This document shows positions 12,627 through 46,824 of a DNA stretch of 53,764 bases, one piece after another (the stretch's first letter is position 1; the number at the start of each line of letters is the position of its first letter). The notes under the pieces were generated by a model. It saw only the letters and a list, made by a program, of their open reading frames with translations. It was not told the DNA's origin and did not search any database. The DNA is taken from the NCBI GenBank assembly GCA_040384945.1, contig JAZKII010000004.1, positions 12,654-66,417 on the forward strand, given 5' to 3'. The DNA is from Pseudomonadota bacterium. GTDB lineage: Bacteria; Pseudomonadota; Alphaproteobacteria; Rickettsiales; UBA1997. A program made the position numbers and the translations under genes.

Positions 12627-13919
12627 ATGAAACTTAATCTAGATCAATTTCAAAATTTATTATCAGTTATTGCGTCGAATAATGCAGCGGAATTAGACCT
12701 TCTTTTACAACAAGAAGATGTGAAATCCGTAATTAACGATATTGATGAAATAGGCCAAACACCTTTGATAAAAGCTGCAAAGAATGGAAATGTAGAAATA
12801 GTCGGAATTCTTCTAAAACATGGAGCTGACGTTAATTACGCTGACCGAGAAAATGGGGGAGGTACGGCTCTAATGGCAGCGGCATGCGAGGGTCATGTCA
12901 ACATAGTTAAGGCTCTTTTAGATAAAGGAGCTGAGGTTAACAATCAAAAAGATGGGGGATGGACAGCTTTGATGGAAGCCGCAGCTTATGCCGATTCGGA
13001 AACAATCAAAGCTCTTTTAGATGGAGGTGCTCATATTAATCAGGCAGATAATGATAATTGCATAGCATTAACATATGCCGTTCAAAATTCTGTGGCTAAT
13101 GTCAGAATTCTTTTAAATAGCGGAGCTGAGGTTAATCACTTGGATAAATTTGGTTATACAGCTTTAACATCAGCCGCTAAGTTTTCTCGCGACCCAGAAA
13201 TCATCAATGAAATAATCACCAATACTTATAAGAAGAAAGGCAATGATTGGAGCATTATGATATATGGTAATGAAAACCAACCAAGCCAACTAACTGAAGA
13301 AGTCTTGAACATTTTACCTAAAGAAAGTGTCATCCTTCTTGCGACTGTTATTGATAAGGAAGAATTAAGAAATTCGATAGTTGCAAATTACAATAAAAAA
13401 AATCCTCAAGATACAATAGATCCTAACTCAATTGGATTACTCCGAATTTTAAGATCACGGCATCATGAATTTTTCATGAAATCCGGTGTTGCAGCAAGTG
13501 AAGCAAATTTTATGGCGAATGAAAAACTTCTTTCCTTAGTTAATAACCCAGAAGAAAGAGAAGTAGCTTTCGATAGACACAGTAAAATCAGTAAGATGGT
13601 TCAAGATCCAAACTTGCTAACTTATTTGAAATTTATTCAGGAATCTGAGAAAAATGAAAAGGAAAACGAAACTTTTAATAATTTAATATCTCGACTGGCT
13701 CCAAAAAATCATTCTATTGAAGAAAACAAAATCTATATCGCCATCCTCTCTACTCTAACTCCGCAGGAGGTAGAAATTCTTGCAAGTGGTCATATTTCAG
13801 CGCAGAATAATTCATCAAATATAAGAAAGGGCGTAAAACCCTATTTTACTGATCCTTCCTCTATTATTTCTAATCCTATGATTTCGATAGGATCGCGAAA
13901 TAATTATTTTTCTATATAG
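12627..13919 (+). CDS. Ankyrin-repeat protein (about 5 canonical repeats) with an unknown C-terminal region
   Basis: GQTPLIKAAKNGNVEIVGILLKHGADVN, GTALMAAACEGH, GWTALMEAA, GYTALTSAA. Confidence 0.93.
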   Translation: MKLNLDQFQNLLSVIASNNAAELDLLLQQEDVKSVINDIDEIGQTPLIKAAKNGNVEIVGILLKHGADVNYADRENGGGTALMAAACEGHVNIVKALLDKGAEVNNQKDGGWTALMEAAAYADSETIKALLDGGAHINQADNDNCIALTYAVQNSVANVRILLNSGAEVNHLDKFGYTALTSAAKFSRDPEIINEIITNTYKKKGNDWSIMIYGNENQPSQLTEEVLNILPKESVILLATVIDKEELRNSIVANYNKKNPQDTIDPNSIGLLRILRSRHHEFFMKSGVAASEANFMANEKLLSLVNNPEEREVAFDRHSKISKMVQDPNLLTYLKFIQESEKNEKENETFNNLISRLAPKNHSIEENKIYIAILSTLTPQEVEILASGHISAQNNSSNIRKGVKPYFTDPSSIISNPMISIGSRNNYFSI

Positions 13920-13948: not shown

Positions 13949-15655
13949 ATGAAACCAGCGAATCCATTAATTCTTAGTGAAGAAATCAGCGCTCAAATTT
14001 TACAGGCCATCGAAAATGATGATGCAAAAAAGCTGTTTGAGTTAGTGGGTGATATTGACATTTCAAAGATAAAAATTGATGGGCTTGATTTGGCCCAACT
14101 GGCAATGAAGCATAAAAAATTGGATCTATTTGATAAGCTGATTAAGCGAGATTTTTCTTTGCTGCTTCGTAGAGATGAAAAAGGTAATGACCTTTTAGCA
14201 CAGGCATCACAGGCTGGTAATGGTGATCTACATGATCACTTAATAGAGAAGCATGGCTTTGAATATAGAGCGCTTGAAGCTTGGAAGAATGGACTATTGC
14301 AAGATACAGGAGATTTTCTTTGGGATTTATTGCATCATAATAAAACTGAAGCCTCGTTAATCCGGCAAGCTTTCGATGAAGTTCCACCTAACTCTATTCA
14401 TCAAGGCTTTTATAAAATTGTGCAGGAAAGTTTTAGGCTCCATTATCTATTAACTGTAGCAACCGATTCTGAAGTACTAAATCATTTGATGAATATACCG
14501 CCATTGTTGACATATGACCTAGAGGTTGATAAAGGTAAAAAAGTTGCCACATTTCTACCAAGAGACGTGTTAGGAACTGGAATAAGATTCAATGGTGAAA
14601 GTTTACTGAATGTTGCCAAGAGGCGAGGGTTAGATCAATCTGTTGAGATATTAAAAGATATGTTCGAAATCACTTCAGAAGCGAGCAATAAGGCATTATT
14701 TTTGGATAAATACCTTTATCCCCGAGAGCCAAGGGATAGGCCAAATAACTATGAAGAACTCAAAGCAAGCATTTTACCAGATCTCAACTTTAAGCCATGG
14801 CGAGATAATGAAGACGAAACCATCTATTATTGTTTCGATATCCCTGAAGATGGAGTAGACAATACTTACCACAGAAAAGGAACCGGCTTCAAGGAAAAGG
14901 CGCTTAGTGAAGAAGAGATAAAAATGGTTGATGACAGGATCCAAAGTTATTTTGCCAAAACTGATGTTAAAATTGAGAGAATGAGCCTTACCACAAATGA
15001 AGTAAAAGAAGTTATAGCGGGGGCAACTTATAACAAAAATTTAATTTTTATCGCTAAGGCACCGAACGCTACCCAAGGCGGATATACGAGAGAGGTCGAT
15101 GAGGCGAGAAATAAATTTTATGGAACAGAATATAATGATGTTTCGACAAGAGTAGTGGCGTTAGGATTGATAAATGATTATGTAATCATTCATGAAATGT
15201 TACACGCCGTGAGTCATTTGAAACATCCAAAAAAATATCAAAATAAGGATACTCCACCTTTTTATTTTGGTGAGATTAATCGCGACACAGTAATGGATTT
15301 TGCTGTAAATTGCGATTCTAACGAAATTGTGGTTGTTAATCCTGTTGATATTGAGGCGGTTAATGAAGTTTGGCATGGAGTAAAATATAATTTTTGTCCA
15401 AGCAAAGAATATATAAAAGCTAAAGATGTTGCGCTTAAATATGGAATTGAAGCAAAGGGAAGGGAAACTTTAGCGCCAGCAGTTTTAAATCCAGTAAAAG
15501 CTGAAGCAATAGCAAGGGGAACGGCAACTTTAGCGACAGTGGTTTTAAAACCAGTAGTTGATTTGGTAGTAAAAAAATTCTCAACACCAAATGCTAAGGT
15601 TAGTCCTTCAACAGGAAAAGCTTTAGGAGAAGATAATAAGACAAAGAATAGGTGA
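13949..15655 (+). CDS. Ankyrin-like N-terminus + metzincin (serralysin-like) Zn-metalloprotease domain
   Basis: IIHEMLHAVSHLKHP zinc motif, Met-turn DTVMDF, then PVDIEAVNEVW; DEKGNDLLAQA ankyrin-like segment. Confidence 0.7.
   Translation: MKPANPLILSEEISAQILQAIENDDAKKLFELVGDIDISKIKIDGLDLAQLAMKHKKLDLFDKLIKRDFSLLLRRDEKGNDLLAQASQAGNGDLHDHLIEKHGFEYRALEAWKNGLLQDTGDFLWDLLHHNKTEASLIRQAFDEVPPNSIHQGFYKIVQESFRLHYLLTVATDSEVLNHLMNIPPLLTYDLEVDKGKKVATFLPRDVLGTGIRFNGESLLNVAKRRGLDQSVEILKDMFEITSEASNKALFLDKYLYPREPRDRPNNYEELKASILPDLNFKPWRDNEDETIYYCFDIPEDGVDNTYHRKGTGFKEKALSEEEIKMVDDRIQSYFAKTDVKIERMSLTTNEVKEVIAGATYNKNLIFIAKAPNATQGGYTREVDEARNKFYGTEYNDVSTRVVALGLINDYVIIHEMLHAVSHLKHPKKYQNKDTPPFYFGEINRDTVMDFAVNCDSNEIVVVNPVDIEAVNEVWHGVKYNFCPSKEYIKAKDVALKYGIEAKGRETLAPAVLNPVKAEAIARGTATLATVVLKPVVDLVVKKFSTPNAKVSPSTGKALGEDNKTKNR
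15451..15556 (+). repeat. Two 46-bp imperfect copies at 60-bp period inside the protease gene
   Basis: agcaaagggaagggaaactttagcgccagcagttttaaatccagta vs agcaaggggaacggcaactttagcgacagtggttttaaaaccagta. Confidence 0.85.
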
Positions 15656-15660
15656 GATAT

Positions 15661-15687
15661 AATTAAGTAAACTGTCCCCTGAATTTT
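15661..15687 (-). repeat. GGGGACAG-type site (copy 1)
   Basis: Reverse complement AAAATTCAGGGGACAGTTTACTTAATT matches 20654-20678. Confidence 0.65.
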
Positions 15688-15781
15688 AATAAGTGGAGCA
15701 AAATTTATCTATTAAGATTAAATTAAATTTAGCTAGATTATGTTCTTATCATAACTTTAGAAAATAATCTCTATTATTCGC

Positions 15782-17659
15782 ATGCCTAAATATAATCACG
15801 GAATAGATTTTTCTGATATTGCAAGAGCCGCAAAATGCTCTCCTACTCAGGCTATATATGAGCTAGTAGCAAATGGATTTGATGCCATGGCCACTGAAAT
15901 TAAAATTAATTTTGGTAATAACGGTCTAGGTAAAGTTAATAAAATCACAATCAGTGATAATGGTGACGGAATTGATTCTTCAAACTTAGAAACAACTTTT
16001 GCAAAAAAAGGTTACACCAACAAGAACTCTGTCGTTACAAAAAAAGAAAGAGATTTTATTGGATGTAAAGGGGTTGGTAGGTATAGAGCATGGTCGCTAG
16101 GCGATAATGTTACGTGGAAAAGTTATGATAAATTGAATAGTCGGTATCACCAAATCGTAATGGCTGAAGATGGGATAGATTGTGATTTTGTACAAAAAAT
16201 ACCAAATCTGAGAAAAGGAACAATAGCTGAAATTCACAACGATTCCAAAAACTATGATCTAACTGTGGAATCGCTTTATGAAAAGCTATCACAGATGTTT
16301 GCGATCTATATATTGAAATATGGCGTATCAATTAAGGTATCTGGCAATAATGAAACAAAGCCAATTGATAAAAGCACAATTAAAGATCAATTAGAACAGA
16401 AAGACATAACTTTGGATATCAAATATAACGATAAAAAAGTTGTATTGCGCCTTTATTTCTGGAAAAACTCGAAAAAGAAATTTGATACAATTTTTTTATG
16501 CAACCACCATGGATATACCATGGAAGAACGTCCAGAAAAAGCTCCTAACAATATCAGTATTCATATTCTTTGTGAAGAATTCCAAACAGGTTCCGAAATA
16601 TTTAGTCAGGAAATCAATCAAATTATAAAGAATTGCCTACAGCATGCAATGGATTGGAGCGTAGAGCTAGCACAAAAAGTGCATAAGGATAAACTAGATG
16701 ATCTAAAAAATAACGGAATATATCCTTCCGTTAACAATTTAAGCTTAGTAGATGAAACGGAGAAGAATATATTAGAAAGTATGTCGATAATGGTCTCAGA
16801 CTATATTGATATAAACCATGGTAATGCAAAATCTCGAGATAGAAGTAAGTTAATTTTAAGCTTAGCAAACAAGCTGTTGGAGCATGATGTAGAAAGCTTT
16901 ATAAAGGTTGTTCAAGATGTAGTAAAACTTGATAAGCTAGATATAGAAAGAACAAATAATATTTTACAATATACCTCTCTTACAAATTTATTAAATTTGG
17001 GTCGTGAATGCTCGAATAGGTTACTGTGTCTAAAAGGAATTCGCAATATTACGCAAGATGGTGAAAAAATGAAAACCATTAAAGAGAGAACCCACTTGCA
17101 TAAAATTATTGAAAGGAATTGTTGGATTTTTGGCGAAGAATATAATCTTGCCGTCACAGATCAGAATACAACAAACGCGCTAAAAGAGATAATTAAAGAT
17201 GATGTAAAAACTTATGATGATTTGGTGATAGGAGATGTAAAAGATTTTGATGGAAAGATAGGGGTAATCGATTTACTGCTATCTATGCGAAACAACAGAA
17301 ATGAACACCTATTAATAGAATTAAAAAGACCAAGTGTAAAAGTGGGAGAAAAAGCAATACAACAGACGAAAAAATATTGTATGGCTCTTACGAAGCATCA
17401 TAGATGGGAGAAAGGAAGAAAAATTAAAGCAATAGCTGTGTCTACGGATGTTGATGAGTATGGGGAATCCGATAGAGAGAATGAAAATCATCAAGTGGGA
17501 TTTTCTGCTGATTATACCATTCATGTTAAAAAATGGTGTGAGATTCTAAACGAAGCAGAAAGTCGAGTAACCAATTTTCAAAAAGAAGTATTAAATGAAA
17601 TAAATGAGAGCGAGGGATACGCTTATATTAAAGAGCTTCACAAAGATATTTTAGGTTAA
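15782..17659 (+). CDS. GHKL (MORC/HATPase_c-like) ATPase fused to a C-terminal PD-(D/E)xK nuclease
   Basis: ELVANGFDA, ISDNGDGI, GCKGVGRY, GTIAEI; nuclease motif IDLLL..LIELKRP..QTKKY. Confidence 0.85.
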   Translation: MPKYNHGIDFSDIARAAKCSPTQAIYELVANGFDAMATEIKINFGNNGLGKVNKITISDNGDGIDSSNLETTFAKKGYTNKNSVVTKKERDFIGCKGVGRYRAWSLGDNVTWKSYDKLNSRYHQIVMAEDGIDCDFVQKIPNLRKGTIAEIHNDSKNYDLTVESLYEKLSQMFAIYILKYGVSIKVSGNNETKPIDKSTIKDQLEQKDITLDIKYNDKKVVLRLYFWKNSKKKFDTIFLCNHHGYTMEERPEKAPNNISIHILCEEFQTGSEIFSQEINQIIKNCLQHAMDWSVELAQKVHKDKLDDLKNNGIYPSVNNLSLVDETEKNILESMSIMVSDYIDINHGNAKSRDRSKLILSLANKLLEHDVESFIKVVQDVVKLDKLDIERTNNILQYTSLTNLLNLGRECSNRLLCLKGIRNITQDGEKMKTIKERTHLHKIIERNCWIFGEEYNLAVTDQNTTNALKEIIKDDVKTYDDLVIGDVKDFDGKIGVIDLLLSMRNNRNEHLLIELKRPSVKVGEKAIQQTKKYCMALTKHHRWEKGRKIKAIAVSTDVDEYGESDRENENHQVGFSADYTIHVKKWCEILNEAESRVTNFQKEVLNEINESEGYAYIKELHKDILG

Positions 17660-17677
17660 TTCTTTGAAGGAGTAATA

Positions 17678-18892
17678 ATGATTGAGTTTCAGAAAGGGAA
17701 TACAGCTTTATATTTAATATATACATCAGAACGCTTTGATAGCGATGAGAATTGGGCTTCTAAAAAACTAAATGATAAAGAGATAGTAAGGCTTAGAAAG
17801 ACATTTTATCTAGATAAAAGTAAGCTTTCTGCTGATGAAGATTCTATATTTCAAGATGAGTTTGGTTCAGAATCTTTAAAGTTTATAATTGGAAACAGAG
17901 TTGGTGAATATTACCACTTAGATAAGGCTGTGTTATCAATAGAGTTTGATCTTTATATTCACAAAGATGTTCAGCTTGATACTAAATCATTTATAGCTGT
18001 AAGGGACACTTCAATTTTTAGAAAAATTAATCGATTAAGTCCGAAAGAGATTTATATAGGAGGAAATGCTTACGGCAATTTACCTGAAAATAAATTTAAA
18101 GAGTTAATCAAATCATTTCCTAACAGCTCAGAGTTAGATAAGTATGTATCAGCACGATTAACCACTACTTTAAGAGACCACCTTGATTTAAAGTTTGATG
18201 GAGAAAAGTCATATAATAATTATATGGAATGGAAGGTTTCTACGCATCGTAGCACTTTACCTCAGATGTTTAATCACAATGAATTAGAAAAATATTCTAT
18301 TCTGTTGGATAGGTTAAAAGAAATGCTTTCCAATCAAGACGGTTATGTTGAAGGACAATGGCAAGAGGAAATATCCCAATTCATTCTTTTACTTTATCCC
18401 AAATATATAAAAGTTTTCAAAGAAGTTCCAATCAAGGATACACGAGGCGTAAAGAGAAGAATCGACCTGCTTCTGTTAGATTCAGATGGAAACGTTGATA
18501 TTATTGAGATCAAAAAGCCATTTGATAGATGTATAGTTACCGAAGGTCTTTATAGAGATAACCATATTCCTCTTAGAGAATTATCAGGGACTATCATGCA
18601 AATAGAAAAGTATATATTTTGGCTTAACAAGGCAGGGCAATCAGCAGAGGATAAACTAAATACTGAATATAAGGATTGGTTACCACATGGATTAAAAATC
18701 AAAATAACTAACCCTAGTGGTATGATTATAATGGGTAGATCTTCAAAACTCACTCATGAACAAAAAGAGGATTTTGAGATAATAAAAAGAAAATACAAAA
18801 ATGTTGTGGATGTGATTACCTACGATGATTTGCTCAATAGGTTAGAAGTGATGATAGAAAAATTTAAAACGAATTTAAAAACACAAAAATAA
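17678..18892 (+). CDS. sduA: Shedu anti-phage nuclease SduA (DUF4263)
   Basis: E.QWQ, RIDLLLLD, IIEIKKP, ELSGTIMQIEKY, IIMGRS, VITYDDLL; RBS GAAGGAG upstream. Confidence 0.85.
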   Translation: MIEFQKGNTALYLIYTSERFDSDENWASKKLNDKEIVRLRKTFYLDKSKLSADEDSIFQDEFGSESLKFIIGNRVGEYYHLDKAVLSIEFDLYIHKDVQLDTKSFIAVRDTSIFRKINRLSPKEIYIGGNAYGNLPENKFKELIKSFPNSSELDKYVSARLTTTLRDHLDLKFDGEKSYNNYMEWKVSTHRSTLPQMFNHNELEKYSILLDRLKEMLSNQDGYVEGQWQEEISQFILLLYPKYIKVFKEVPIKDTRGVKRRIDLLLLDSDGNVDIIEIKKPFDRCIVTEGLYRDNHIPLRELSGTIMQIEKYIFWLNKAGQSAEDKLNTEYKDWLPHGLKIKITNPSGMIIMGRSSKLTHEQKEDFEIIKRKYKNVVDVITYDDLLNRLEVMIEKFKTNLKTQK

Positions 18893-19022
18893 TTCACGTT
18901 TGTTGAGTAAATTTCTTTCAAAAAGAAAAATACTATAGCTGGAAATAGATACAAATACACACCAGCCGAGGCCGAATTCTAATTTGATGATTTTTGTGAA
19001 ATGAGCTTAGCTCTGATGGAGA

Positions 19023-19045
19023 TGGTTGCGGGGGCTGGATTTGAA
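19023..19045 (-). repeat. att site: displaced 3' fragment of tRNA-fMet
   Basis: Identical to 43708-43730 (T-loop to CCA). Confidence 0.95.
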
Positions 19046-19097
19046 ATATGACACTTCAAGCCTTGCCAGTAAAGGATTTAACCTTTTTTGATTCTGA

Positions 19098-19126
19098 TTT
19101 GTACATTGTTTTGTACATGAAAAAAT
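19098..19126 (+). promoter_or_regulatory. Putative integrase arm-type sites (left end)
   Basis: TTTGTACAT twice at 12-bp period then GAAAAAA; near-identical block at 43571-43598. Confidence 0.7.
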
Positions 19127-19181
19127 AAATGCTTACCTTACTCGAGGAAGAGTTTTATTTTAGCACAAAAAATTTACTAAA

Positions 19182-20534
19182 ATGTCAAAAGGAAAAACCG
19201 TAATTACTCTTGGTGCAGGTGGCGCCAAAGATATAGGAATGCCGCTTGGAAGCGAATTGCATGATAAAATCTGCCAACTTGATGTCAATCTTGTTGCAGC
19301 TCTTTTGTATCAAAGCTTAAAGAAAAGAGCGGAACAATTTTTTAAAAAGCATCCTGAGGTAAAAAGTAGTGGCTTAGGTAGCTATAGTGTTGATGGTTTT
19401 ATCAAGTGTTACCTATCTTTCTTGATTGGAAAATATCAGCACGCCTACTTAGAAAAAAAACGCGAAACCGCTATAGATCAAGATTTGTTCGAAAAGATCC
19501 GTGACGAGATAATGAAGTTAGCACCAACTGACTTATTTTTCAGAGAAAATTTTTTGAATTTTGGCAAAAAAAATAAATTGATAGAAGAATTTCTTGAAGA
19601 AGATCTTGTCGGCACAGAGCCGGATGTAGAAAAGGCTTTATCGCAATGTCCGGAATATGAGGCATTTAGTTGCGCTGCCAAAATTGCTAGGGAGAATTGC
19701 CGTAGTAGCGTTGATGTTCTTTTGTCCCATATAATCAAAGACAAAATTATTTTGCCGCCTTTTGTAGAAAAAGATAAAGTGGTCACATACATAAAAAAGC
19801 TTGTGGCTTTTTCCATCTTGTGCCTCGAGAACAATTTAAGCCTCAGCGGGGTTAATAACTGGTACCACGTCTTATCCGAAGCTATAGTGAATCGCGATAA
19901 TTTGGATGATATAACTATCATTTGCTTCAACTACGATAGGACACTTGATGAGTTTTTGAACAAACATCTTCCCCATCAATATCGTGAAGAAATAAAAAAG
20001 AGAATAATCTACCCTTACGGATCGCTATCTGAAGTTGAAAATGCATGTCCCGACTGTAAATTCGGGTGGCTTAATGATGCGTTAAAATATGCCGTTGGAA
20101 TTGACGGTCATGATGGTAGAATTCGTTTCGATTATAAAGGTTTGGACCTTTTATATAATTTTATTACCGATGCAGCTGAAGCAGGAAAGCCATGTTTGGC
20201 TAGTTTTGCAAAATGCATTAAAACTATTGGTGAAGATGATCAGTACACTAAGGAGCGATTTGCCTTAGCAAAACAAGAAATAAGTAGCGCTAACAGGCTC
20301 TACTTTATTGGTTTTGGGTTTATTGAAGAAAACTGCGCTAATCTTGGTCTGGAAAGCGTAATGTCTAATAAAAACAAAATCATTTTCTATACTAATTACA
20401 AAGGTTTAGAAGAAAGAATAGCTAGGTATATTAAAATGCCGCACGGTGTCTCTGATAGAGAGGAAGATAAATGCCGCATCAAGTCCTATGGAAATATAAA
20501 AGATGCGCTTAGAAGTAGTTTTGACCCGATTTAA
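19182..20534 (+). CDS. SIR2-like (sirtuin/AbiH-type fold) protein, putative NADase defence effector
   Basis: VITLGAGGAKDIGMPLGSEL, ICFNYDRTLD, IIYPYGSL, LYFIGFGF..EN. Confidence 0.75.
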   Translation: MSKGKTVITLGAGGAKDIGMPLGSELHDKICQLDVNLVAALLYQSLKKRAEQFFKKHPEVKSSGLGSYSVDGFIKCYLSFLIGKYQHAYLEKKRETAIDQDLFEKIRDEIMKLAPTDLFFRENFLNFGKKNKLIEEFLEEDLVGTEPDVEKALSQCPEYEAFSCAAKIARENCRSSVDVLLSHIIKDKIILPPFVEKDKVVTYIKKLVAFSILCLENNLSLSGVNNWYHVLSEAIVNRDNLDDITIICFNYDRTLDEFLNKHLPHQYREEIKKRIIYPYGSLSEVENACPDCKFGWLNDALKYAVGIDGHDGRIRFDYKGLDLLYNFITDAAEAGKPCLASFAKCIKTIGEDDQYTKERFALAKQEISSANRLYFIGFGFIEENCANLGLESVMSNKNKIIFYTNYKGLEERIARYIKMPHGVSDREEDKCRIKSYGNIKDALRSSFDPI

Positions 20535-20807: not shown

Positions 20808-22061
20808 CTAAATTTTGTTCGCTCTCTCCAAATCTTCATGCTCAAAGGCCGAAGACATACGATCTATTTCTTTTTTACGTAAATCAAAATTCTTGGCTAC
20901 TTCACGCCACTTAAGTACCGATTTTGCAACTTCTCCGATAACTTTATTTGCTTCATTTTTATTTAATCTGAAGCTCTCAGCAACAGATAATGCTGTTTCT
21001 AAAGAGGCGGAATCGTTATTAAAATCGATTGCAGTCGTTAGAATTCTGGGCTTTATTTCAGTTGGTGTTGGATTGAGATCGTAGGCAGGAGAAAGGCGCC
21101 AACCTTTTTGATTTTCGTAGAGAAACCCGTGATTGCGTAGGTGATCATCCGTATTTGAAATCAATACATTAAAAACTATGCGGCGCCATAGTTGCTTCAT
21201 ATCTTCATCTGGAGCTGCTCCGAATTGCGATAAAGCATCAGCAATTTCGAGATAGCTATGTTGTTCATTATCTCGTGCTTGCAGCATGCTCATAGCCGAA
21301 AGAAAAGGAACGCGGATTTTTTTGATTCGGTCAAAACGTTTAACAATCAAAACCGGCTTTTTGTTAATTTCTTCTAAGCTAAATGAAGGTGTTGTGATGC
21401 CGGAATTTTTTGCTAGAGTTAGTGCTACTGCTTCCCATTTTTCCACTTCAAATCCGTCATCTTTTCTTGGAAATTTAGCAATTGCTAGATTTCCATTTTT
21501 ATCAAGTACTGACGATTTAGGACGCGCGCCGCCAAGAGATGATCCGGGAGCTAAAAGTAATTTTAGGTCTTCTGAATTTTCCTTATCGTCAATAAACTTA
21601 TCCGAAGCCGCGAGGAGTTTTGGTAAATCAATTAGCGGAGGAATAGAGTGTTTGTCTTTGGGGCTTAAAAACTCGCCATCAATTTTTTCAGAGAAGCGAA
21701 GAGCGCCTTGACGCAACTCATCACTTACACCAAGCAGATAATCAGCCTCACTCAAACTACGAGCTGTTTCTTTTTCATTTGTTGCACGCTTTGATTCTGC
21801 TCTTCGCATTAAAACTCTTCCCCAGCGGTCAGGCGCAGAATCACCAACTGCACCAAAAATATCTTGATCTAGGCCAGTATGAAATACACCCTCGGTGAGC
21901 TTCAAAGCTGGTTCAAGCGCAAATCTCTCGGGGTGAGTTAGCCAGCTTCGATCATACTCAAAAGAAGCACTCTCTTTACCTCTTTTGGAGTGAAACCAAA
22001 GTCTGCCAATAAAAATATTATTTTCGCCTAAAGCGATGTGGACAAAAATCTCTCTACTCAT
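20808..22061 (-). CDS. hipA: HipA family kinase toxin
   Basis: SLGGARPK, IAKFP, KRFDR, NTDDHLRNHGF, LSPAYDLNP, with an N-terminal coupling domain. Confidence 0.93.
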   Translation of the reverse strand: MSREIFVHIALGENNIFIGRLWFHSKRGKESASFEYDRSWLTHPERFALEPALKLTEGVFHTGLDQDIFGAVGDSAPDRWGRVLMRRAESKRATNEKETARSLSEADYLLGVSDELRQGALRFSEKIDGEFLSPKDKHSIPPLIDLPKLLAASDKFIDDKENSEDLKLLLAPGSSLGGARPKSSVLDKNGNLAIAKFPRKDDGFEVEKWEAVALTLAKNSGITTPSFSLEEINKKPVLIVKRFDRIKKIRVPFLSAMSMLQARDNEQHSYLEIADALSQFGAAPDEDMKQLWRRIVFNVLISNTDDHLRNHGFLYENQKGWRLSPAYDLNPTPTEIKPRILTTAIDFNNDSASLETALSVAESFRLNKNEANKVIGEVAKSVLKWREVAKNFDLRKKEIDRMSSAFEHEDLERANKI

Positions 22062-22386
22062 TTGTTATTATTGTTATTTTTCTTGGTCTAATTCGCTTAG
22101 GCAAATTCTCCTCATCAATTTGTCTCCCTACTAGATCATGACTGGAATCGACTAAATCAGAAATTCTACTTGTCATACCAAGCACAAACAAAACTGATGC
22201 ATAGTTGCCCATTGATGTTGTTGGATCACCTTTTTCAATTTTTGCTAAGGTTCTGCGAGATATTCCAGAGCGCTCCGCCATTAACTCAGTTGCAATACGG
22301 CGGCGACGACGAGCCTCAGAAATATCCTGACCAACTTTGCGTAAAGCTTTACTTATAGGAAGTGGTAAGTGAGATGGATTTTTCAT
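22054..22386 (-). CDS. XRE-HTH antitoxin (HipB-like)
   Basis: ARRRRRI..ELMAERSGISRRTLAKIEKGDP; overlaps the hipA start by 8 bp. Confidence 0.88.
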   Translation of the reverse strand: MKNPSHLPLPISKALRKVGQDISEARRRRRIATELMAERSGISRRTLAKIEKGDPTTSMGNYASVLFVLGMTSRISDLVDSSHDLVGRQIDEENLPKRIRPRKITIITNE

Positions 22387-22446: not shown

Positions 22447-22606
22447 ATAGCTTATTTACAAGAAAATCAATTAAGGAACAAAAGTAGATAGATATACAGC
22501 TAATTTGAGATGATTTATGATCTTATCATCTTCCATTCTTTCGAGTAAGAATAGTTTTTTAGGGAGTTTAATTGCTGAGAATTTAAATATCTGTTACAGT
22601 CCTACT

Positions 22607-23191
22607 ATGGTTAGCGACCAAATTTTAAGAAAAATAAAATCTAAAAAGAGAGGATGGGTATTTTGTGCCAAGGATTTTAGTGGCATTAGTCCTAGAAATT
22701 CTATCTATAAAGTTTTGTCTAGAATGGCTGGTAATAATGCTATTGATGATAACGGTAAAATAATCAGACTTATTAGAGGAATTTATTACTATCCAATTTT
22801 GCAAGCAGGCATAGGCATCATTCCGCCAGATCTGAATGTAGTTGCTGGAGCTCTTGCTCGAAATTCTGGTATTAGGATTTATCCATCGGGTGCTTTATCG
22901 GCTAATATACTGGGTCTTTCAAATCAGGTGCCAGTGCAGAATGTTTATTGGACACATGGCAAATCTATGACTAAGCATTTTGGTAAAAATGCGATCCATT
23001 TTAAGCATATTAGAATTAATCCAGCACCAAATACTCCAATAGCGGCGGTGATGGTTTTGAATGCCTTGAGTTATATCGGAAAAGATGCAGTGGATGATTC
23101 TGTTATAAAGAAATGCAGCAAAATTTTGAACAATGTTGATAAAAAATCTTTGCAGAAAATGTCTTCTGAAGTTTTTGCTTGGATTTATTAA
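22607..23191 (+). CDS. DUF6088 / AbiEi-like antitoxin-type regulator (no partner present)
   Basis: GWVF..KDF, IYKVLSRM, RLIRGIYYYP, SANILGLSNQVP; start placed at ATG 22607. Confidence 0.75.
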   Translation: MVSDQILRKIKSKKRGWVFCAKDFSGISPRNSIYKVLSRMAGNNAIDDNGKIIRLIRGIYYYPILQAGIGIIPPDLNVVAGALARNSGIRIYPSGALSANILGLSNQVPVQNVYWTHGKSMTKHFGKNAIHFKHIRINPAPNTPIAAVMVLNALSYIGKDAVDDSVIKKCSKILNNVDKKSLQKMSSEVFAWIY

Positions 23192-26253: not shown

Positions 26254-28194
26254 TTACTCCTTGTTTGTAGTTATTTGAAAAGCAGATTTAAGGCCCGCAG
26301 TACCTTTGAGTCTAAATTTATTCATTATGGTCTCCAAACGTGTTTTGGCTGACGAATCAGTAACTATTGCGTCATGTCCACTTGCTGCCCATGGGCCAAG
26401 TTTATTAACTGGTAAATTATCCAGAAGATCAAGGTACCGTGTCTGCAATCCTGATTGAGATTTAACTAATTCGTTAATTCCAAACATTACCGGCGGTTTA
26501 GTTTCGAATGATGTGCAAGAGTTTAACTTGCGCTGAAGTTCTTTGAAAATCAGATCTGCGTCAGCAATAGTTAAGGCCTTTAAATCTTTAGAACACTGAC
26601 TAGAATTTGCCTTTCCACCTACTAATTTTGTTACTAGTTCTATAAGCTTCGGGGATAAGTGCGACGAAACATCAAGATAATTTTTGCGATCTTTTATCAC
26701 AAATAAATATGGCTTCAGTGAGGTTAAATTAAATTTAGGTTCGATTTCAATCCACTTTAGAACTTCAGGGCGCGTTTCCCAATCTTTTACTACCGAGTTT
26801 TCTTCGGGTGCCGTGGCTTCTTCATTAGCTTTTTTGTCTGTCGGATTCTTTTTCGCTTTAGATTGATTTTCTAAGATATTGATTTCTCTGCAAACTCCAT
26901 CTCCAGCGTTCGCTGCAGATCTAGCCATATGCTCAAATACTCCCGCATCTAAAAACATTTCAGCAAGCATTAGTTTTGCTAAATATGGTGACTTTATTTC
27001 ATCGCCAAAGCCACGCTCTCTGGCAACTTGTAGTCGTAGGTTTAGTGCGTTTAAAAATCTTTTTATCTGTCTAGGATTACCTTTGGTTCCTGATGATAGT
27101 ATAGGAGCAATTTGATCTGAAATCGACAGTGATGGCAATACTTGATCGAACTTTTCTCCCAGAATATTTTTTACATCCTGACGATCAATACCGTCACCGC
27201 TCCATGGTTTTTTGAGAGCCTTTCTTCCGAGCTCTAACAATTTTCCAAACTCTTCTGAGTCCTCACCTAATTCTGCACCCATTAAAAGAAGTTCTACATA
27301 TATGCTTGTTTCAGTTTCTCCAAGAGCAGGAATTCTCATCGGAACCTGTATTAATTTCTCAAGATAATTTCGCGCGTAGCCGATGGCATTAGTTGATTCA
27401 GGCAAATCTGGAAAGTGGTGCTTTACGGAATATTCAATCATGGCCTCATCCGCGCCTATGACGAATGCAGTTTTTGGCAAAGAAACAAAAAGACGGATTG
27501 CTTCCAGAGTTTCCACAGCAGTTTGAGGAAGGCATCGATCAAGATCATCGATTAAAACAACTAAACGATCAATTTTAGCTTTCTTTAAAAGGGCATCAAA
27601 AGCCTTTTTAAATTCATTTATTTCTTTCGGTATGTTGTGATTTTCAGATTTATCTTTGAGTAAAGATGATGTAGCTGATGCCACAGCTTTAATGTTATCT
27701 TCAGTTGCGAGCTCGGATGGATTTCCCAATTGACTTTTTGCAGCACTCAATAAATCACCAATCTGGTCAAGAGTTGGAATTCCGGTAAATGCTGTAAATG
27801 CTAATCCACCGGCTTTTTTAGCTACTTTCAGCCAGTCAATTTGATGAAAAAGATTTTTTACTTCTTCTGAAGCTATTGTCATTAAAGAACGTTTAGCTAT
27901 CAGCTCCGTTACTATGCTTTCTATAACAGCAATTTTTGCATCTTCAAATCCCTGAAATTGCCAGCCATTAAATTTTATACAAAGAATTTCTTTTTCTGCA
28001 GATAAACCTTCCTCTATCATCTCGAGAACACTTGATTTTCCAGCACCCCAATCTCCGTGAACTCCAATAGTTATCGGTTTACCTTGTGTCTTTTTAATGA
28101 CACTAACTACCGAGCGCGCCATGGCTTCGTTGTTAAGAAAATCAACTTTTGTTTCTTGATCGAATAAGAAGCCGCTAGGCCCGATAATAGTCAT
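26254..28194 (-). CDS. qatA: Qat system KAP-family P-loop NTPase QatA
   Basis: GDWGAGKSS, FNGWQFQGFEDAK, VLIDDLDRCLP, YLEKLIQVP, GNPRQIKRFLN. Confidence 0.95.
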   Translation of the reverse strand: MTIIGPSGFLFDQETKVDFLNNEAMARSVVSVIKKTQGKPITIGVHGDWGAGKSSVLEMIEEGLSAEKEILCIKFNGWQFQGFEDAKIAVIESIVTELIAKRSLMTIASEEVKNLFHQIDWLKVAKKAGGLAFTAFTGIPTLDQIGDLLSAAKSQLGNPSELATEDNIKAVASATSSLLKDKSENHNIPKEINEFKKAFDALLKKAKIDRLVVLIDDLDRCLPQTAVETLEAIRLFVSLPKTAFVIGADEAMIEYSVKHHFPDLPESTNAIGYARNYLEKLIQVPMRIPALGETETSIYVELLLMGAELGEDSEEFGKLLELGRKALKKPWSGDGIDRQDVKNILGEKFDQVLPSLSISDQIAPILSSGTKGNPRQIKRFLNALNLRLQVARERGFGDEIKSPYLAKLMLAEMFLDAGVFEHMARSAANAGDGVCREINILENQSKAKKNPTDKKANEEATAPEENSVVKDWETRPEVLKWIEIEPKFNLTSLKPYLFVIKDRKNYLDVSSHLSPKLIELVTKLVGGKANSSQCSKDLKALTIADADLIFKELQRKLNSCTSFETKPPVMFGINELVKSQSGLQTRYLDLLDNLPVNKLGPWAASGHDAIVTDSSAKTRLETIMNKFRLKGTAGLKSAFQITTNKE

Positions 28195-29072: not shown

Positions 29073-29270
29073 ATGACAGTCAGAGAGGTAGCCGACTATT
29101 TAAAAATAGCGGAAAAAACTGCCTATCGCCTTGTCTTAGATAAAAAAATTCCAGGCTTTAAAGTGGGTAATGCTTGGCGTTTTCGTAAAAAAGAAATTGA
29201 AGATTGGATTGTGAATCAAACTAAAGGTAGTGCCTCTATAAAAAGTGGAGGCCCATTGGATGCTAATTGA
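29073..29270 (+). CDS. Excisionase-type HTH regulator leading the RM operon
   Basis: MTVREVADYLKIAEKTAYRL..IPGFKVGNAWRF; start ATG 29073 or GTG 29046. Confidence 0.85.
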   Translation: MTVREVADYLKIAEKTAYRLVLDKKIPGFKVGNAWRFRKKEIEDWIVNQTKGSASIKSGGPLDAN

Positions 29271-32200
29271 TAATAAGGGGAATGGAAAAGTTGTTACCGA
29301 GTTAAAGAAGAAAATTACCTCAAATTCAAAGCTTTCAATCCTTTCAGGGTTGTTTTCAATTTATGGATTTTCTTGTCTTAAAAATGAATTGAGTCAGATC
29401 CAAGAAGTTAGAATGATGCTTTCAAGATTTGATGATAAATCAATACCACTTCTATCCGGAAACATTTCTGAATTAAGGCTAAAAAATCAACTCGATCAAC
29501 AGAGGATAGCAAAAGACTGCATAAAGTGGCTGAGTTCTAACATATCAATTAAGGCCCTTAATAAAAATCTAGTTAATCAAAACTTATTCCATCTTCAAAA
29601 ATCCGACGGCGAATCTTTTGCCATTCATGGAAGTTCAAATTTTACTGCTTCAGGCCTTGGAGAAACCAAGTCTGAAAAATATGAGATGAATACTGGTTTT
29701 TCTGATGCAGAGGCAACCAAACAACTACTAAATTGGTTTAATGAAATTTGGGAAGATCACCAAGCTGTAAGGGATATTAAACAAGAAATTTTAACCGCTC
29801 TTGAGTTTATTGGCTCTAATAAACCGGCCAATTTAGTTTATTTTATAACCCTCTTTAATATCTTTCAGGACTATTTAGAGGAGATTGATGAAGACAGTAT
29901 CATTAGATCTAAAACAGGTTTTAAGAATACCTTGGTTTGGAATAAACTTTATAAATTTCAGAAAGATGGAGCTCTTGGTGCAATAGACAAGTTGGAAAGA
30001 TATAACGGATGTATTATCGCAGATAGTGTGGGTCTTGGCAAGACCTTTGAAGCCTTAGCAGTGATAAAATATTATGAGCTAAGAAATGACAGAGTTCTTG
30101 TTTTATGTCCAAAAAAACTAAGAGAAAATTGGACGATTTTTACTGTAAACGATAAGCGCAACCTTCTTGCAGCAGATCGTTTTAACTACGATGTTCTTAA
30201 TCACACTGACTTAAGCCGAGAAAAAGGAAGCTCAGGTGAGATAAATTTAGCTACCATAAATTGGGGAAATTACGACTTAGTTGTAATTGATGAATCTCAC
30301 AATTTTAGAAATTCTGGCAACAAAGCTGATGGAGTTACTCGCTATAAAAGAATGATGCAGCAAGTCATTCAATCGGGAGTTAAAACGAAAGTTTTAATGC
30401 TTTCCGCGACACCGGTTAATAGTAGAATGAACGACCTCAAGAATCAGGTCGCATTTATCACTGAAGGTCAAGATAGCGCTCTTGCAGATCATGGAATTCA
30501 AAGTATTGAAAACACTTTAAGAATTGCTCAAACTAAATTTAACCAATGGCTTAAGCTTCCAGATAGTCAAAGAAAGACAGATGCTTTATTAGAAGGATTG
30601 AATTTTGATTACTTCAAGCTGCTTGATATTTTTACTATCGCAAGATCAAGAAAACACATTGAGAAATATTATAATGTAGCAGAAATCGGAAAATTTCCTG
30701 AAAGATTGAAGCCGCTAAATATCAAGTCAGATATAGACCTTGATAAAAATTTTCCACCGCTAAAAGAAGTAAACACTAAGATAAAAAAGCTTAACTTGGC
30801 AGCTTATGCCCCAATGAAATATGTTAGGCTTAATAAGAGAGAAGAATATAGTCGTAAATACGACCAACAAGTTAAAGAAGGATCAGTATTTAAGCAGGTT
30901 GATAGAGAGTTAAGCCTTATTCATTTGATGCGCATTAATATGCTCAAAAGAATGGAGAGTTCAATAAACTCATTCTCGCTGACTGTTGAGAAAGTTTTGA
31001 ACCAGATTGGTAGCCTAATTAAAAGAATTGAAGACCACAAAGGCTCTGAATTTGAAGAATTAAGCATTGAGGAAATTGAAACCGATTCTCCTGAATTTGA
31101 GCAACTTTTAATTGGCAAAAAGGTAAAAGTTTTAATCCAAGACATCGATCTACTTCATTGGAAACAAGATCTGGAAGAGGATAGAGAAATTCTACAATTG
31201 TTACTTGATGAGGCGAAAGCCATTGATGAATCAAGAGATGCCAAATTATTAGAGCTCAAGAAGGCCATAATCAATAAATCCCAAAATCCAATTAATGACG
31301 GTAATAGCAAAATCATAATTTTTACCGCTTTCGCTGATACGGCAAATTACCTTTATAGAAATCTATCCAATTGGGCTTTGTCTGAATTAAATTTACATTC
31401 AGCATTAGTCACGGGCTCTGGCGCCAATCAATGCACAATCAAAGGTTTGGATAAAGACCTAAATAATATCCTGACTCACTTTTCCCCAATTTCAAAAGAA
31501 CGAGTAAAAATTGATCCAGATGCAGCAACTCAAATAGATATTCTCATCGCCACCGACTGCATTTCTGAGGGACAAAACCTACAAGATTGTGACACTCTGG
31601 TTAATTACGACATTCACTGGAATCCAGTTCGCATCATTCAAAGATTTGGTCGAGTTGATCGATTGGGATCAAAGAATAAGGCAATTCAGCTAATAAATTT
31701 CTGGCCGAATATGGAGCTAGATGAATATATCAATCTTGAAGCCAGAGTTAGTGGTAGAATGGTTCTTTTAGATATTTCAGCCACTGGCGAAGAAAATGTT
31801 ATCGAGTATGACGAAAAGAAGCAGATGAACGATTTAGAATATCGTCGTCGTCAAATGCAGCAGCTTCAAGATTCAGTTGTAGATATTGAAGACATGGATG
31901 GCAGCGTTTCAATAACTGACATGACGCTCAACGATTTTAGAATGGATCTGTCGGGATTCATGAAAGAAAATCTTCCTCTTCTTAAAAAATCTTCCTCGGG
32001 ATTTTATGCTGTTGTGAGAGGTTTTGACGAAGAAATTAAATCCGGAGCAATCTTCTGTTTGAAAGATGTAAGCGGCAAAGTTCAGAAAGATCCGCACTAT
32101 GCTTTAGCCCCTTATTACATGGCTTATGTTGCCGATGATGGCAATATTATTTTCAATTACATTCAGGGCAAAAAGAGTTTAGATATTCTTAAAAAACTCT

Positions 32201-32454
32201 GCTCTCACAATAAAGAAATTGATCTTTTAGCGGTTCAGAATTTTGAAAAGATCACGAATTATGGCAAAGACATGGGTCATTGCCAATTCATGCTTGAGAA
32301 AGCCATTTCTAGCATAATTGGTAAATCAGAAGAAAAGGGTGTTGAAAGCCTATTTACAAGAGGTGGTACTGCAATTCTTCAAGATAATTTTAGGGGCATG
32401 GAAGATTTTGAAGTGATCAGCTTTTTGGTAATTGCTAAGGAGGAATCCGAATGA
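29260..32454 (+). CDS. SNF2-family helicase with a PLD-like N-terminal domain
   Basis: GSSNFTASG..EMN (PLD-like), ADSVGLGKT, DESHNFRN, LSATP, SEGQNLQ, WNPVRIIQRFGRVDR; GGAGG before ATG 29260. Confidence 0.9.
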   Translation: MLIDNKGNGKVVTELKKKITSNSKLSILSGLFSIYGFSCLKNELSQIQEVRMMLSRFDDKSIPLLSGNISELRLKNQLDQQRIAKDCIKWLSSNISIKALNKNLVNQNLFHLQKSDGESFAIHGSSNFTASGLGETKSEKYEMNTGFSDAEATKQLLNWFNEIWEDHQAVRDIKQEILTALEFIGSNKPANLVYFITLFNIFQDYLEEIDEDSIIRSKTGFKNTLVWNKLYKFQKDGALGAIDKLERYNGCIIADSVGLGKTFEALAVIKYYELRNDRVLVLCPKKLRENWTIFTVNDKRNLLAADRFNYDVLNHTDLSREKGSSGEINLATINWGNYDLVVIDESHNFRNSGNKADGVTRYKRMMQQVIQSGVKTKVLMLSATPVNSRMNDLKNQVAFITEGQDSALADHGIQSIENTLRIAQTKFNQWLKLPDSQRKTDALLEGLNFDYFKLLDIFTIARSRKHIEKYYNVAEIGKFPERLKPLNIKSDIDLDKNFPPLKEVNTKIKKLNLAAYAPMKYVRLNKREEYSRKYDQQVKEGSVFKQVDRELSLIHLMRINMLKRMESSINSFSLTVEKVLNQIGSLIKRIEDHKGSEFEELSIEEIETDSPEFEQLLIGKKVKVLIQDIDLLHWKQDLEEDREILQLLLDEAKAIDESRDAKLLELKKAIINKSQNPINDGNSKIIIFTAFADTANYLYRNLSNWALSELNLHSALVTGSGANQCTIKGLDKDLNNILTHFSPISKERVKIDPDAATQIDILIATDCISEGQNLQDCDTLVNYDIHWNPVRIIQRFGRVDRLGSKNKAIQLINFWPNMELDEYINLEARVSGRMVLLDISATGEENVIEYDEKKQMNDLEYRRRQMQQLQDSVVDIEDMDGSVSITDMTLNDFRMDLSGFMKENLPLLKKSSSGFYAVVRGFDEEIKSGAIFCLKDVSGKVQKDPHYALAPYYMAYVADDGNIIFNYIQGKKSLDILKKLCSHNKEIDLLAVQNFEKITNYGKDMGHCQFMLEKAISSIIGKSEEKGVESLFTRGGTAILQDNFRGMEDFEVISFLVIAKEESE

Positions 32455-33209
32455 TTCAGGTGATCCTTAACGCATTGGCAATTCCAACTTTCTGCAAATT
32501 AGAAAGGCCAGTTTTTAAAAAATTCTTTCTCGAGAGTAATAATCTTGATGCTTCCGACAAAAAGATAATTCGCGATGACGTTAAAAAGATAACTTGGCTT
32601 TATGCTCTAAAACCAAGCAATATCAACATTCCTAAATATGAAGATGGCGTTGTTGATTATTCAGAAATTGCAATTTTGCAGATAGATTTATTAAGCGAAA
32701 ATAAAGCCAAAAAACTTAACAACATTTTAAACAAAGCCATTCCCTATCCACTGGTTGCCTTGTTTGCGTTCGATGATAAATGCGCCATTGGTTTGGCAAA
32801 TAAAAGAATTAACCAAATCGACAAATCGAAATCATTGATTGAGAAAGAATGGTTAACTCGTTTTTTTGAAAAAGATAAGATGGGTGAAATTGAGCAAGAT
32901 TTCTTACAAGATTGTTCAATCAAAAATTTGTCATCACTCAATTTTTATAAGCTTTATCAAGATCTGGTTGCCAAAGTTGCCGCGCTTGGCTTGGCTGAGA
33001 AGACCGGAATTTATTTGGTGACTAATTTTTTAAAGTCAGAAGCAGGAATTAACTCTTTAAGAGAAATGCAGGAAATTGAGCAAAAAATTTTAAATTTAAG
33101 AAACTCTTTATCTAAAGAAACTCAGTTTAACAGAAAGCTAGAATTGAATGTAGAAATTAAAAATTGCCAAAGCGCAATCGACGAAATTTCAAAGAAATTT
33201 TATAAATAA
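32451..33209 (+). CDS. DUF4391-like protein
   Basis: AIPYP and KETQFNRKLELN motifs; usual position between SNF2 helicase and type III Mod. Confidence 0.8.
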   Translation: MIQVILNALAIPTFCKLERPVFKKFFLESNNLDASDKKIIRDDVKKITWLYALKPSNINIPKYEDGVVDYSEIAILQIDLLSENKAKKLNNILNKAIPYPLVALFAFDDKCAIGLANKRINQIDKSKSLIEKEWLTRFFEKDKMGEIEQDFLQDCSIKNLSSLNFYKLYQDLVAKVAALGLAEKTGIYLVTNFLKSEAGINSLREMQEIEQKILNLRNSLSKETQFNRKLELNVEIKNCQSAIDEISKKFYK

Positions 33210-33224
33210 ATCAAAAGCAAAACT

Positions 33225-35186: not shown

Positions 35187-35195
35187 GGAGCAAAT

Positions 35196-43539: not shown

Positions 43540-43562
43540 TTTTTCATGTATAAGTTTTTGGA

Positions 43563-43598
43563 TGTACAATTTTGTACATTACTTTGTACATGAAAAAA
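43563..43598 (+). promoter_or_regulatory. Putative integrase arm-type sites (right end)
   Basis: TGTACA at 43563, TTTGTACAT at 43571 and 43583, then GAAAAAA. Confidence 0.7.
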
Positions 43599-43707: not shown

Positions 43708-43784
43708 TGGTTGCGGGGGCTGGATTTGAACCAACGACCTTCAGGTTATGAGCCTGACAAGCTACCGGGCTGCTCTACCCCGCG
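43708..43784 (-). tRNA. tRNA-fMet (CAT), integration target
   Basis: CGCGGGGTAGAGCAGCCCGGTAGCTTGTCAGGCTCATAACCTGAAGGTCGTTGGTTCAAATCCAGCCCCCGCAACCA; C1:A72 mismatch of initiator tRNAs; encoded CCA. Confidence 0.97.
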
Positions 43785-46737: not shown

Positions 46738-46824
46738 TGGTACCTCCGATCCGAATCGAACGGACACGTCCCAGGGGACAATAGATTTTGAGTCTATCGC
46801 GTCTACCAATTCCGCCACAGAGGC
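46738..46824 (-). tRNA. tRNA-Leu (CAA)
   Basis: GCCTCTGTGGCGGAATTGGTAGACGCGATAGACTCAAAATCTAT..GTTCGATTCGGATCGGAGGTACCA; long variable arm. Confidence 0.96.

Follow-up and report, generated by a model that had tools for sequence, protein, structure and literature searches.

A GHKL ATPase-nuclease gene and a Shedu SduA gene lying head to tail beside a tRNA-Met island in a Rickettsiales contig

A 53,764-nt stretch of contig JAZKII010000004.1 (assembly GCA_040384945.1, Rickettsiales, UBA1997), referred to here as the window, carries two adjacent forward-strand genes that encode a GHKL ATPase with a C-terminal PD-(D/E)xK nuclease (P0001) and a Shedu nuclease SduA (P0002). The pair probably represents two self-sufficient single-gene anti-phage nucleases, positioned head to tail in a variable, defence-rich stretch beside a tRNA-Met hotspot. 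Their adjacency is most likely a chance product of defence-island packing and not the signature of a new two-gene system. A preliminary description had put the locus forward as a coupled two-nuclease pair and a candidate new defence system; the locus is removed from that standing, both genes being of described single-gene kinds. The features of the pair are:

15782..17659, + strand: P0001, 625 amino acids (aa), comprising a GHKL ATPase, a MutL/Hsp90-like middle domain, a helical linker and a C-terminal PD-(D/E)xK nuclease (open reading frame (ORF) call, Pfam, family alignment, models)
15839..16135, + strand: GHKL (Bergerat) ATP-binding domain of P0001, residues 20-118 (Pfam HATPase_c_3 and invariant columns)
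17084..17377, + strand: nuclease core of P0001, residues 435-532, E435...D497...E513-x-K515...Q528-xxx-Y532 (invariant columns, HSDR_N_2 in 17 of 21 family members, fold matches)
17666..17672, + strand: GAAGGAG Shine-Dalgarno sequence of the SduA gene, within the 18-bp gap and 5 nt 5' of the ATG (read directly)
17678..18892, + strand: P0002, 404 aa, canonical Shedu nuclease SduA of the E. coli SduA type, with a predicted N-terminal DNA-end clamp region and a C-terminal DUF4263 nuclease (Pfam, PADLOC, Protein Data Bank (PDB) match, alignment)
18347..18835, + strand: SduA_C (DUF4263) nuclease domain of P0002, residues 224-386 (Pfam; D263, E277 and K279 invariant)

Layout and architecture of the two nucleases

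The stop codon of the P0001 gene (TAA, 17657-17659) is separated from the start codon of the P0002 gene (ATG, 17678) by 18 bp, and this short gap accommodates the strong ribosome-binding site of the second gene. The arrangement conforms to the preliminary description, in which a GHKL ATPase with a C-terminal PD-(D/E)xK nuclease was placed 18 bp upstream of an SduA-like gene; the ORFs, the Pfam matches and the invariant residues all agree with it. A scan of 15500-19300 yields 14 promoter-like sites where 18.3 are expected and two terminator-like sites where 1.3 are expected. The two terminator-like sites lie on the minus strand, and the scan, uninformative overall, places none between P0001 and P0002. 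Because of the 18-bp gap and this lack of a terminator-like site, the two genes are probably carried on one transcript, as judged from the sequence, and the short gap most likely reflects co-transcription without mutual need of either gene. Both genes are alike in base composition, with a G+C content of 0.31-0.32 over 16001-19000, and most of the window lies near 0.36. The description was likewise accurate in placing no methyltransferase with the pair: Pfam and PADLOC scans detect none within or adjoining it, and the closest one (33225-35186) forms part of a restriction-modification cluster inside the neighbouring island.

On the evidence of its sequence, P0002 is a complete and unexceptional Shedu nuclease belonging to the E. 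coli SduA type. Pfam SduA_C (PF14082) matches residues 224-386 with an E-value of 6.7e-38 and 130.8 bits against a 27-bit cut-off, and the PADLOC SduA model PDLC00388 is covered from position 1 to 399 of 402 (E 1.8e-147). The closest solved structure is E. coli SduA (PDB 8ps4/8ps5; E 2.9e-76), the canonical single-gene Shedu, from which P0002 shows no notable difference; the alignment spans residues 25-397, and therefore the N-terminal part is matched as well, beyond the nuclease. Within the nuclease domain, the catalytic residues D263, E277 and K279 (D...ExK) are invariant in a 26-sequence alignment. Assignment to the B. cereus Shedu type was considered and rejected, as the B. cereus nuclease domain matches only at E 0.0017 and the close solved relative is E. 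coli SduA. The DNA-end-sensing mechanism of EcSduA is described by Loeff et al. (bioRxiv 10.1101/2023.08.10.552762). By analogy with that enzyme, a P0002 tetramer would sense and nick free DNA ends, blocking phages with linear replication intermediates.

P0001 combines an ATPase and a nuclease in a single chain. At its N-terminus, Pfam HATPase_c_3 matches residues 20-118 (E 2.1e-15), and the Bergerat residues E27, N31, D59, G61, G63, G97, G99 and T147 are invariant across P0001 and 20 full-length relatives. At the C-terminal end, the PD-(D/E)xK family HSDR_N_2 gives a weak match to residues 494-537 (E 1.9e-4, 22 bits, under the 25-bit cut-off), accompanied by a weak profile match to NucS (E 3.2e-4). 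The nuclease residues E435, D497, E513, K515, Q528 and Y532 are invariant in the family alignment and are arranged in an E-D-ExK pattern followed by QxxxY. PADLOC, which recognises P0002, holds no model that matches P0001 at E<=0.01.

The full-length model of P0001 (mean predicted local distance difference test (pLDDT) 73) is matched by Foldseek to MutL LN40 and to the N and M domains of Hsp90 (E ~1e-11). Its alignment with MutL LN40 (1b62), which extends over 308 columns with a template-modelling (TM) score of 0.49 by target, supports a predicted S5/middle (transducer) domain. A separate model of residues 395-625 (pLDDT 81.7; predicted TM score 0.77) aligns in VIA-align with NucS (Z 10.6, 106 residues), E. 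coli SduA (Z 10.5, 167 residues, chain 192-408), the B. cereus Shedu nuclease domain (Z 10.3, 145 residues) and Nt.BspD6I (Z 10.3). These fold matches are tied at the top, the Shedu alignments being the longest with scores no higher than those of the others. A profile of the C-terminal domain returns no matches among PDB sequences at E<=10. If P0001 behaves as its relatives do, it would dimerise through the GHKL domain upon ATP binding, and the middle domain would form a clamp holding DNA. ATP turnover would then license the C-terminal E-D-ExK nuclease to cut the invading DNA.

Recurrence of the pairing and its interpretation

Neighbourhoods were sampled as the best 80 loci per scan, with genes defined by a longest-ORF rule. 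On the GHKL side, 56 of the 80 loci carry a long match. Seven of these were dropped, namely L015 (no contig neighbours), L022 and L029 (neighbours as at L021), L075 (upstream neighbour as at L073), L027 and L028 (gene missed by the ORF rule) and L033 (split frame), leaving 49 loci with 95 immediate neighbours. SduA_C is found in none of these 95 neighbours, and a P0002-clade profile matches none of the 4,718 ORFs across all 80 GHKL loci (1.15 Mb). The SduA side comprises 82 loci besides the window's own, 37 of which extend at least 1,900 bp upstream; a profile search finds the P0001 GHKL family upstream of SduA in 0 of the 37. The pairing is thus not conserved from either side, and the proposal of a coupled system is not supported, given also that the SduA is complete and canonical and that the relatives of the two proteins are discordant.

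This discordance is evident in the similarity landscapes. P0002 has more than 2,000 relatives at E<=1e-20, the best of them 64% identical (P0044) and dozens at about 50%. The best relative of P0001, found by an exhaustive phmmer search against 1.84 billion representatives (clusters at 50% identity), is only 32% identical.

A same-strand gene of another kind lies within 50 bp upstream of SduA in 11 of the 37 loci, and for this reason a tight gap to SduA is not special to the present locus. These upstream genes include GajB (five cases), a Type I HsdR, a class-V aminotransferase, a cold-shock/DUF1294 protein and others. Five metagenome loci have genes of 618-679 aa close upstream of SduA; these genes were considered as hidden GHKL partners and rejected, since they encode GajB helicases preceded by GajA.

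The resulting GajA-GajB-SduA arrays (L100, L128, L130, L141 and L143) constitute a separate observation. They account for 5 of the 37 loci, with gaps of 1-42 bp and two GajA/GajB subfamilies, and Gabija is complete in all five, one GajA being cut by the contig end. Gabija and Shedu may therefore form a recurrent, possibly preferred combination. At another locus, on a short metagenome contig (L154:2-907), a truncated ORF with a PD-(D/E)xK signature (HSDR_N / HSDR_N_2) lies 9 bp upstream of SduA.

Several points weigh against reading the pair as two self-sufficient nucleases. The 18-bp gap, the strong ribosome-binding site and the lack of a terminator-like site fit a single transcript, and the equally low G+C of both genes would fit joint acquisition. 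The sampled neighbourhoods, confined as they are to the best-scoring loci and to ORF-rule genes, belong to distant P0001 relatives (best 32%), and the locus of P0044, the closest SduA at 64%, lies outside the sample. Moreover, one of the 82 SduA loci, L096, yields a GHKL-profile match, the sole one in that set: a truncated ORF of 164 aa (L096:1-495; hmmsearch E 0.0015, 12.8 bits; BLASTP E 0.011) situated 16 bp upstream of SduA on a short metagenome contig, which carries an ELK...Q...Y nuclease motif of the PD-(D/E)xK kind at the same distance from the C-terminus as in P0001. Finally, a two-component Shedu, KELShedu of E. coli, is described by Zhang et al. (PMC12577705), and because it exists, the statement that Shedu always acts alone is not a rule.

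These same points are what a cooperating two-gene unit would draw upon, acting physically or in series, with the 18-bp operon selected as a unit in this lineage: the spacing, the ribosome-binding site and the uninterrupted junction, the shared composition, the precedent of a two-component Shedu and, as a weak hint, the similar nuclease fragment upstream at L096. Such a unit is nevertheless improbable. The adjacency is unconserved in the 49 and 37 informative loci and in the 1.15 Mb surrounding the 80 GHKL loci, each protein is a complete example of an architecture that functions by itself, tight unrelated upstream genes are common in this SduA clade, and the similarity landscapes disagree. KELShedu (KELA and KELB) itself resembles the present pair in that a DUF4263 nuclease follows after a short gap (3 bp as reported, 18 bp here). 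It differs in that KELA is reported to be a 12.6-kDa double-stranded-DNA-binding protein required for activity, whereas P0001 is a complete 625-aa enzyme and the P0001-SduA pairing is non-recurrent.

A serial version of this idea is more doubtful still. The pair would then be a young lineage-specific unit in which the ATP-driven GHKL nuclease would first break circular or end-protected invading DNA and the resulting ends would feed the end-sensing SduA clamp. If true, the two enzymes together would act on phages that escape each of them singly, and the coupling would have left its traces in the operon with its 18-bp gap, in the low G+C common to both genes and in L096 as a possible second case. 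Two single-gene nucleases brought side by side in a defence-rich stretch remain the preferred reading.

The tRNA-Met island and its surroundings

The pair lies immediately to the left of a 24.7-kb island (19023-43730) integrated at a tRNA-Met gene. The left border of the island is marked by an exact 23-nt repeat of the tRNA-Met 3' end (43708-43730), which represents the distal attachment-site (att) copy; no match arose in 100 shuffles. With its end 130 bp short of this copy, the pair lies outside the island, in accordance with the preliminary description. That description also raised the possibility of a remnant of an earlier element at this tRNA. An older insertion at this hotspot is plausible and a fair guess, consistent with the position outside att and with the finding that the DNA of the pair has no match among 40 same-genus genomes; on the other side, a search to the left for a further att copy that would mark an older island found none within three mismatches. 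The window contains two tRNA genes, tRNA-Met and a tRNA-Leu (46738-46824, minus strand). The features of the island are:

19023..19045, + strand: distal att copy, exact 23-nt repeat of the tRNA-Met 3' end, left border of the island (repeat search)
20808-22386: HipA and helix-turn-helix gene (Pfam/PADLOC)
22517-23191: AbiEi, with no AbiEii found alongside
within the island: TatD (domain scan)
26254-28194: KAP NTPase (domain scan)
29245-38180: cluster of SNF2 helicase, DUF4391, N6_N4 methylase and Res-type endonuclease
38173-40479: AAA_13 ATPase
42346-43569, - strand: tyrosine integrase with arm-binding domain, adjoining tRNA-Met (domain scan)
43708..43784, - strand: tRNA-Met (CAT), integration site of the island (tRNA scan)

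Just inside the island ends, 53 and 105 bp from the att copies, lies a 28-nt direct repeat (19098-19125 and 43571-43598) that contains TTTGTACA twice per copy and is 93% identical; these repeats may be arm-type integrase sites.

Several further features surround the pair and the tRNA gene. Upstream of the pair, the product of 12627-13919 is 430 aa long and combines ankyrin repeats at its N-terminus with a weak Abi_alpha match at its C-terminus (E 1.9e-4); the PADLOC candidate PDC-M72A matches it over the ankyrin part (E 3.4e-27). The ORFs that flank the pair directly, 13949-15655 (568 aa) and 19182-20534 (450 aa), have no Pfam, NCBIfam or PADLOC match. A 26-30-nt element at 15660-15689, directly after the stop of the upstream ORF and just 5' of P0001, recurs as three spaced copies on one same-genus contig (G021:C11, at about 22.1, 23.3 and 24.0 kb). 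Its interpretation as the mark of a cassette array was dropped, as the element is unique in its own genome. Next to tRNA-Met, a 394-aa ORF (43913-45097, minus strand) carries HHH_6 and OB-fold domains only, a combination usual at the C-terminus of DNA polymerase III alpha. Further along, a 1,002-aa ORF (47418-50426) has no Pfam match.

The P0001 family and its relation to known systems

The P0001 family is large and patchily distributed. The phmmer search returns 1,640 relatives at E<=1e-3, 791 at E<=1e-10 and 280 clusters at E<=1e-30; among the best 150, almost every protein has a length of 625-700 aa and is matched over its full extent. At least 545 loci over many phyla are located when one genome per species is scanned. 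By tblastn, the family is present on 40 plasmids, 21 of them with at least 80% coverage, and in two Pasteurella phage records. In one of these, phage Pmp14 (L168, OR544131.1), a full-length relative of 28% identity, annotated as 'hypothetical protein', is inserted among the tail genes before the tape-measure gene and looks like a prophage-borne defence insert; the second record is OR544134.1. A protein search detects the P0001 gene in none of 24 same-genus genomes. RefSeq labels the relatives 'ATP-binding protein'.

The neighbours of the family are varied and rich in defence genes. Judged by domain names, a restriction-modification, Abi, toxin or similar neighbour is present at 18 of the 49 GHKL loci, the genes concerned being HsdS, HsdM, HsdR, GmrSD, AbiEii, AIPR, Schlafen/AlbA_2, PRTase-CE, HNH and others. 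On a Phaeobacter plasmid, the family gene overlaps the end of a Type ISP restriction-modification gene. Other loci lie between housekeeping genes. At L023, a contig of a Burkholderiaceae metagenome-assembled genome, the family gene is placed between histidinol dehydrogenase and a histidinol-phosphate-aminotransferase-like gene with spacings of -38 and 8 bp, apparently as a single gene inserted into an operon of housekeeping genes.

It is unlikely that P0001 acts instead as a solitary GHKL Type II/IV restriction endonuclease of the BbrUII/HgiDII kind, recognising sequence or modification, lacking ATP-gated infection sensing and relying for self-protection on a methylase elsewhere or on modification dependence. 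Its best NCBIfam match is indeed NF050001, which represents these enzymes (E 4.6e-18), the PADLOC model REase_II PDLC03419 is matched by 6 of 21 family members (best E 3.9e-7), and members occur in or beside Type I or Type ISP restriction-modification operons (L010, L011, L031, L056 and plasmid NC_023141). However, the NF050001 match of P0001 reaches 65.1 bits against a cut-off of 550 and is limited to residues 25-134 of the GHKL N-terminus, and the model is matched by 3 of the 21 members. In addition, the present gene and most of the 49 loci lack an adjoining methylase, and some members, such as that at L023, sit between housekeeping genes. A role outside defence, as a MutL-like repair or recombination factor or as an inactive relic, is very unlikely: the RefSeq name and a MutL match (TIGR00585, E 1.9e-8) would allow it, but that match is confined to the ATPase domain at 33.7 bits against a cut-off of 180, every ATPase and nuclease residue is intact, the distribution is patchy (0 of 24 and 0 of 40 same-genus genomes), and the family has defence-rich neighbours and is carried by plasmids and, as a moron, within a phage tail module.

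The architecture of P0001 corresponds closely to published single-gene systems. Iyer, Abhiman and Aravind (2008, PMC2292703) describe paraMORC3 proteins, which often stand alone, as GHKL and S5 domains followed at the C-terminus by a RecB-like nuclease with E-D-ExK. Gu et al. (2023/2025, bioRxiv 10.1101/2023.08.10.552793) classify proteins with HATPase_c_3, N24 (with or without N50) and DUF4263 as Shedu type 1D, and 19 such proteins appear in their table of 7,687 Shedu proteins. Adams et al. (2025, PMC12137116) report that VcSduA of Vibrio cholerae, a GHKL and DUF4263 protein, on its own confers protection on both E. coli and V. cholerae, and that this protection is lost with E27A and K557A; they model the protein as an entwined dimer. 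The preliminary description had offered an uncharacterised standalone GHKL-nuclease as its other possibility; the standalone character is supported, and the architecture is already published in these three sources, so that 'uncharacterised' does not.

At the level of sequence, the family is set apart from these proteins. Pfam SduA_C matches none of 21 P0001-family members at E<=0.1. PADLOC SduA models give no match to P0001 itself and weak ones in 3 of the 21 members (E 0.0012-0.0055). In hhalign, the P0001 family or its C-terminal part aligns with the SduA alignment at 7-9% probability, with D, ExK and QxxxY lined up. The N-box motif of the family, WNGFD, is found in none of the 543 published VcSduA hits, and NGFDA is also found in none. 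Two complete genomes with family members, NZ_CP085234 and NZ_CP064029, are absent from the VcSduA table and may lie outside its data set, and none of 11 P0001-family accessions looked up is present in the table of Gu et al. A large family that spans many phyla, plasmids and prophages is thus missed by PADLOC v2, Pfam SduA_C and the published VcSduA hit list. If its members defend as VcSduA does, present censuses of defence systems undercount GHKL-gated nucleases, a gap that a dedicated profile for the P0001 family would close.

Set against this separation are likenesses of architecture and structure. VcSduA, a type I-D Shedu of the paraMORC3 kind, as reported shares with P0001 the GHKL motifs I-IV, a MutL/Hsp90-like middle domain, a C-terminal PD-(D/E)xK nuclease with E-D-ExK, a length of about 625-690 aa, occurrence as a single gene in defence islands and an ATPase Glu at position 27; it differs in belonging to another sequence family, a distinction drawn from motifs and tables. 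Type 1D Shedu has the same domain order, with a reported pre-nuclease N-terminal length of 437-497 aa compared with about 430 in P0001. The structural neighbours of P0001 in a protein atlas (TM 0.44-0.47, residues 7-452) fall in clusters in which HATPase_c_3 is present in 100% of members and SduA_C in 71% or 23%. A PF14082 scan of 401 genomes yields one protein that combines both domains, L184 (587 aa; HATPase_c_3 at 91 bits, SduA_C at 27.2 bits against the 27-bit cut-off), its SduA_C match lying at threshold and reaching across 59 of the 159 positions of the model. Between this protein and the P0001 family profile, 491 columns align from the ATPase through the nuclease core (probability 99.1%, E 7.9e-19). 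Collectively, the P0001 family is read here as a sister lineage of the GHKL-type Shedu and paraMORC3 proteins that present family models miss, and by analogy with those relatives it would work in the same manner.

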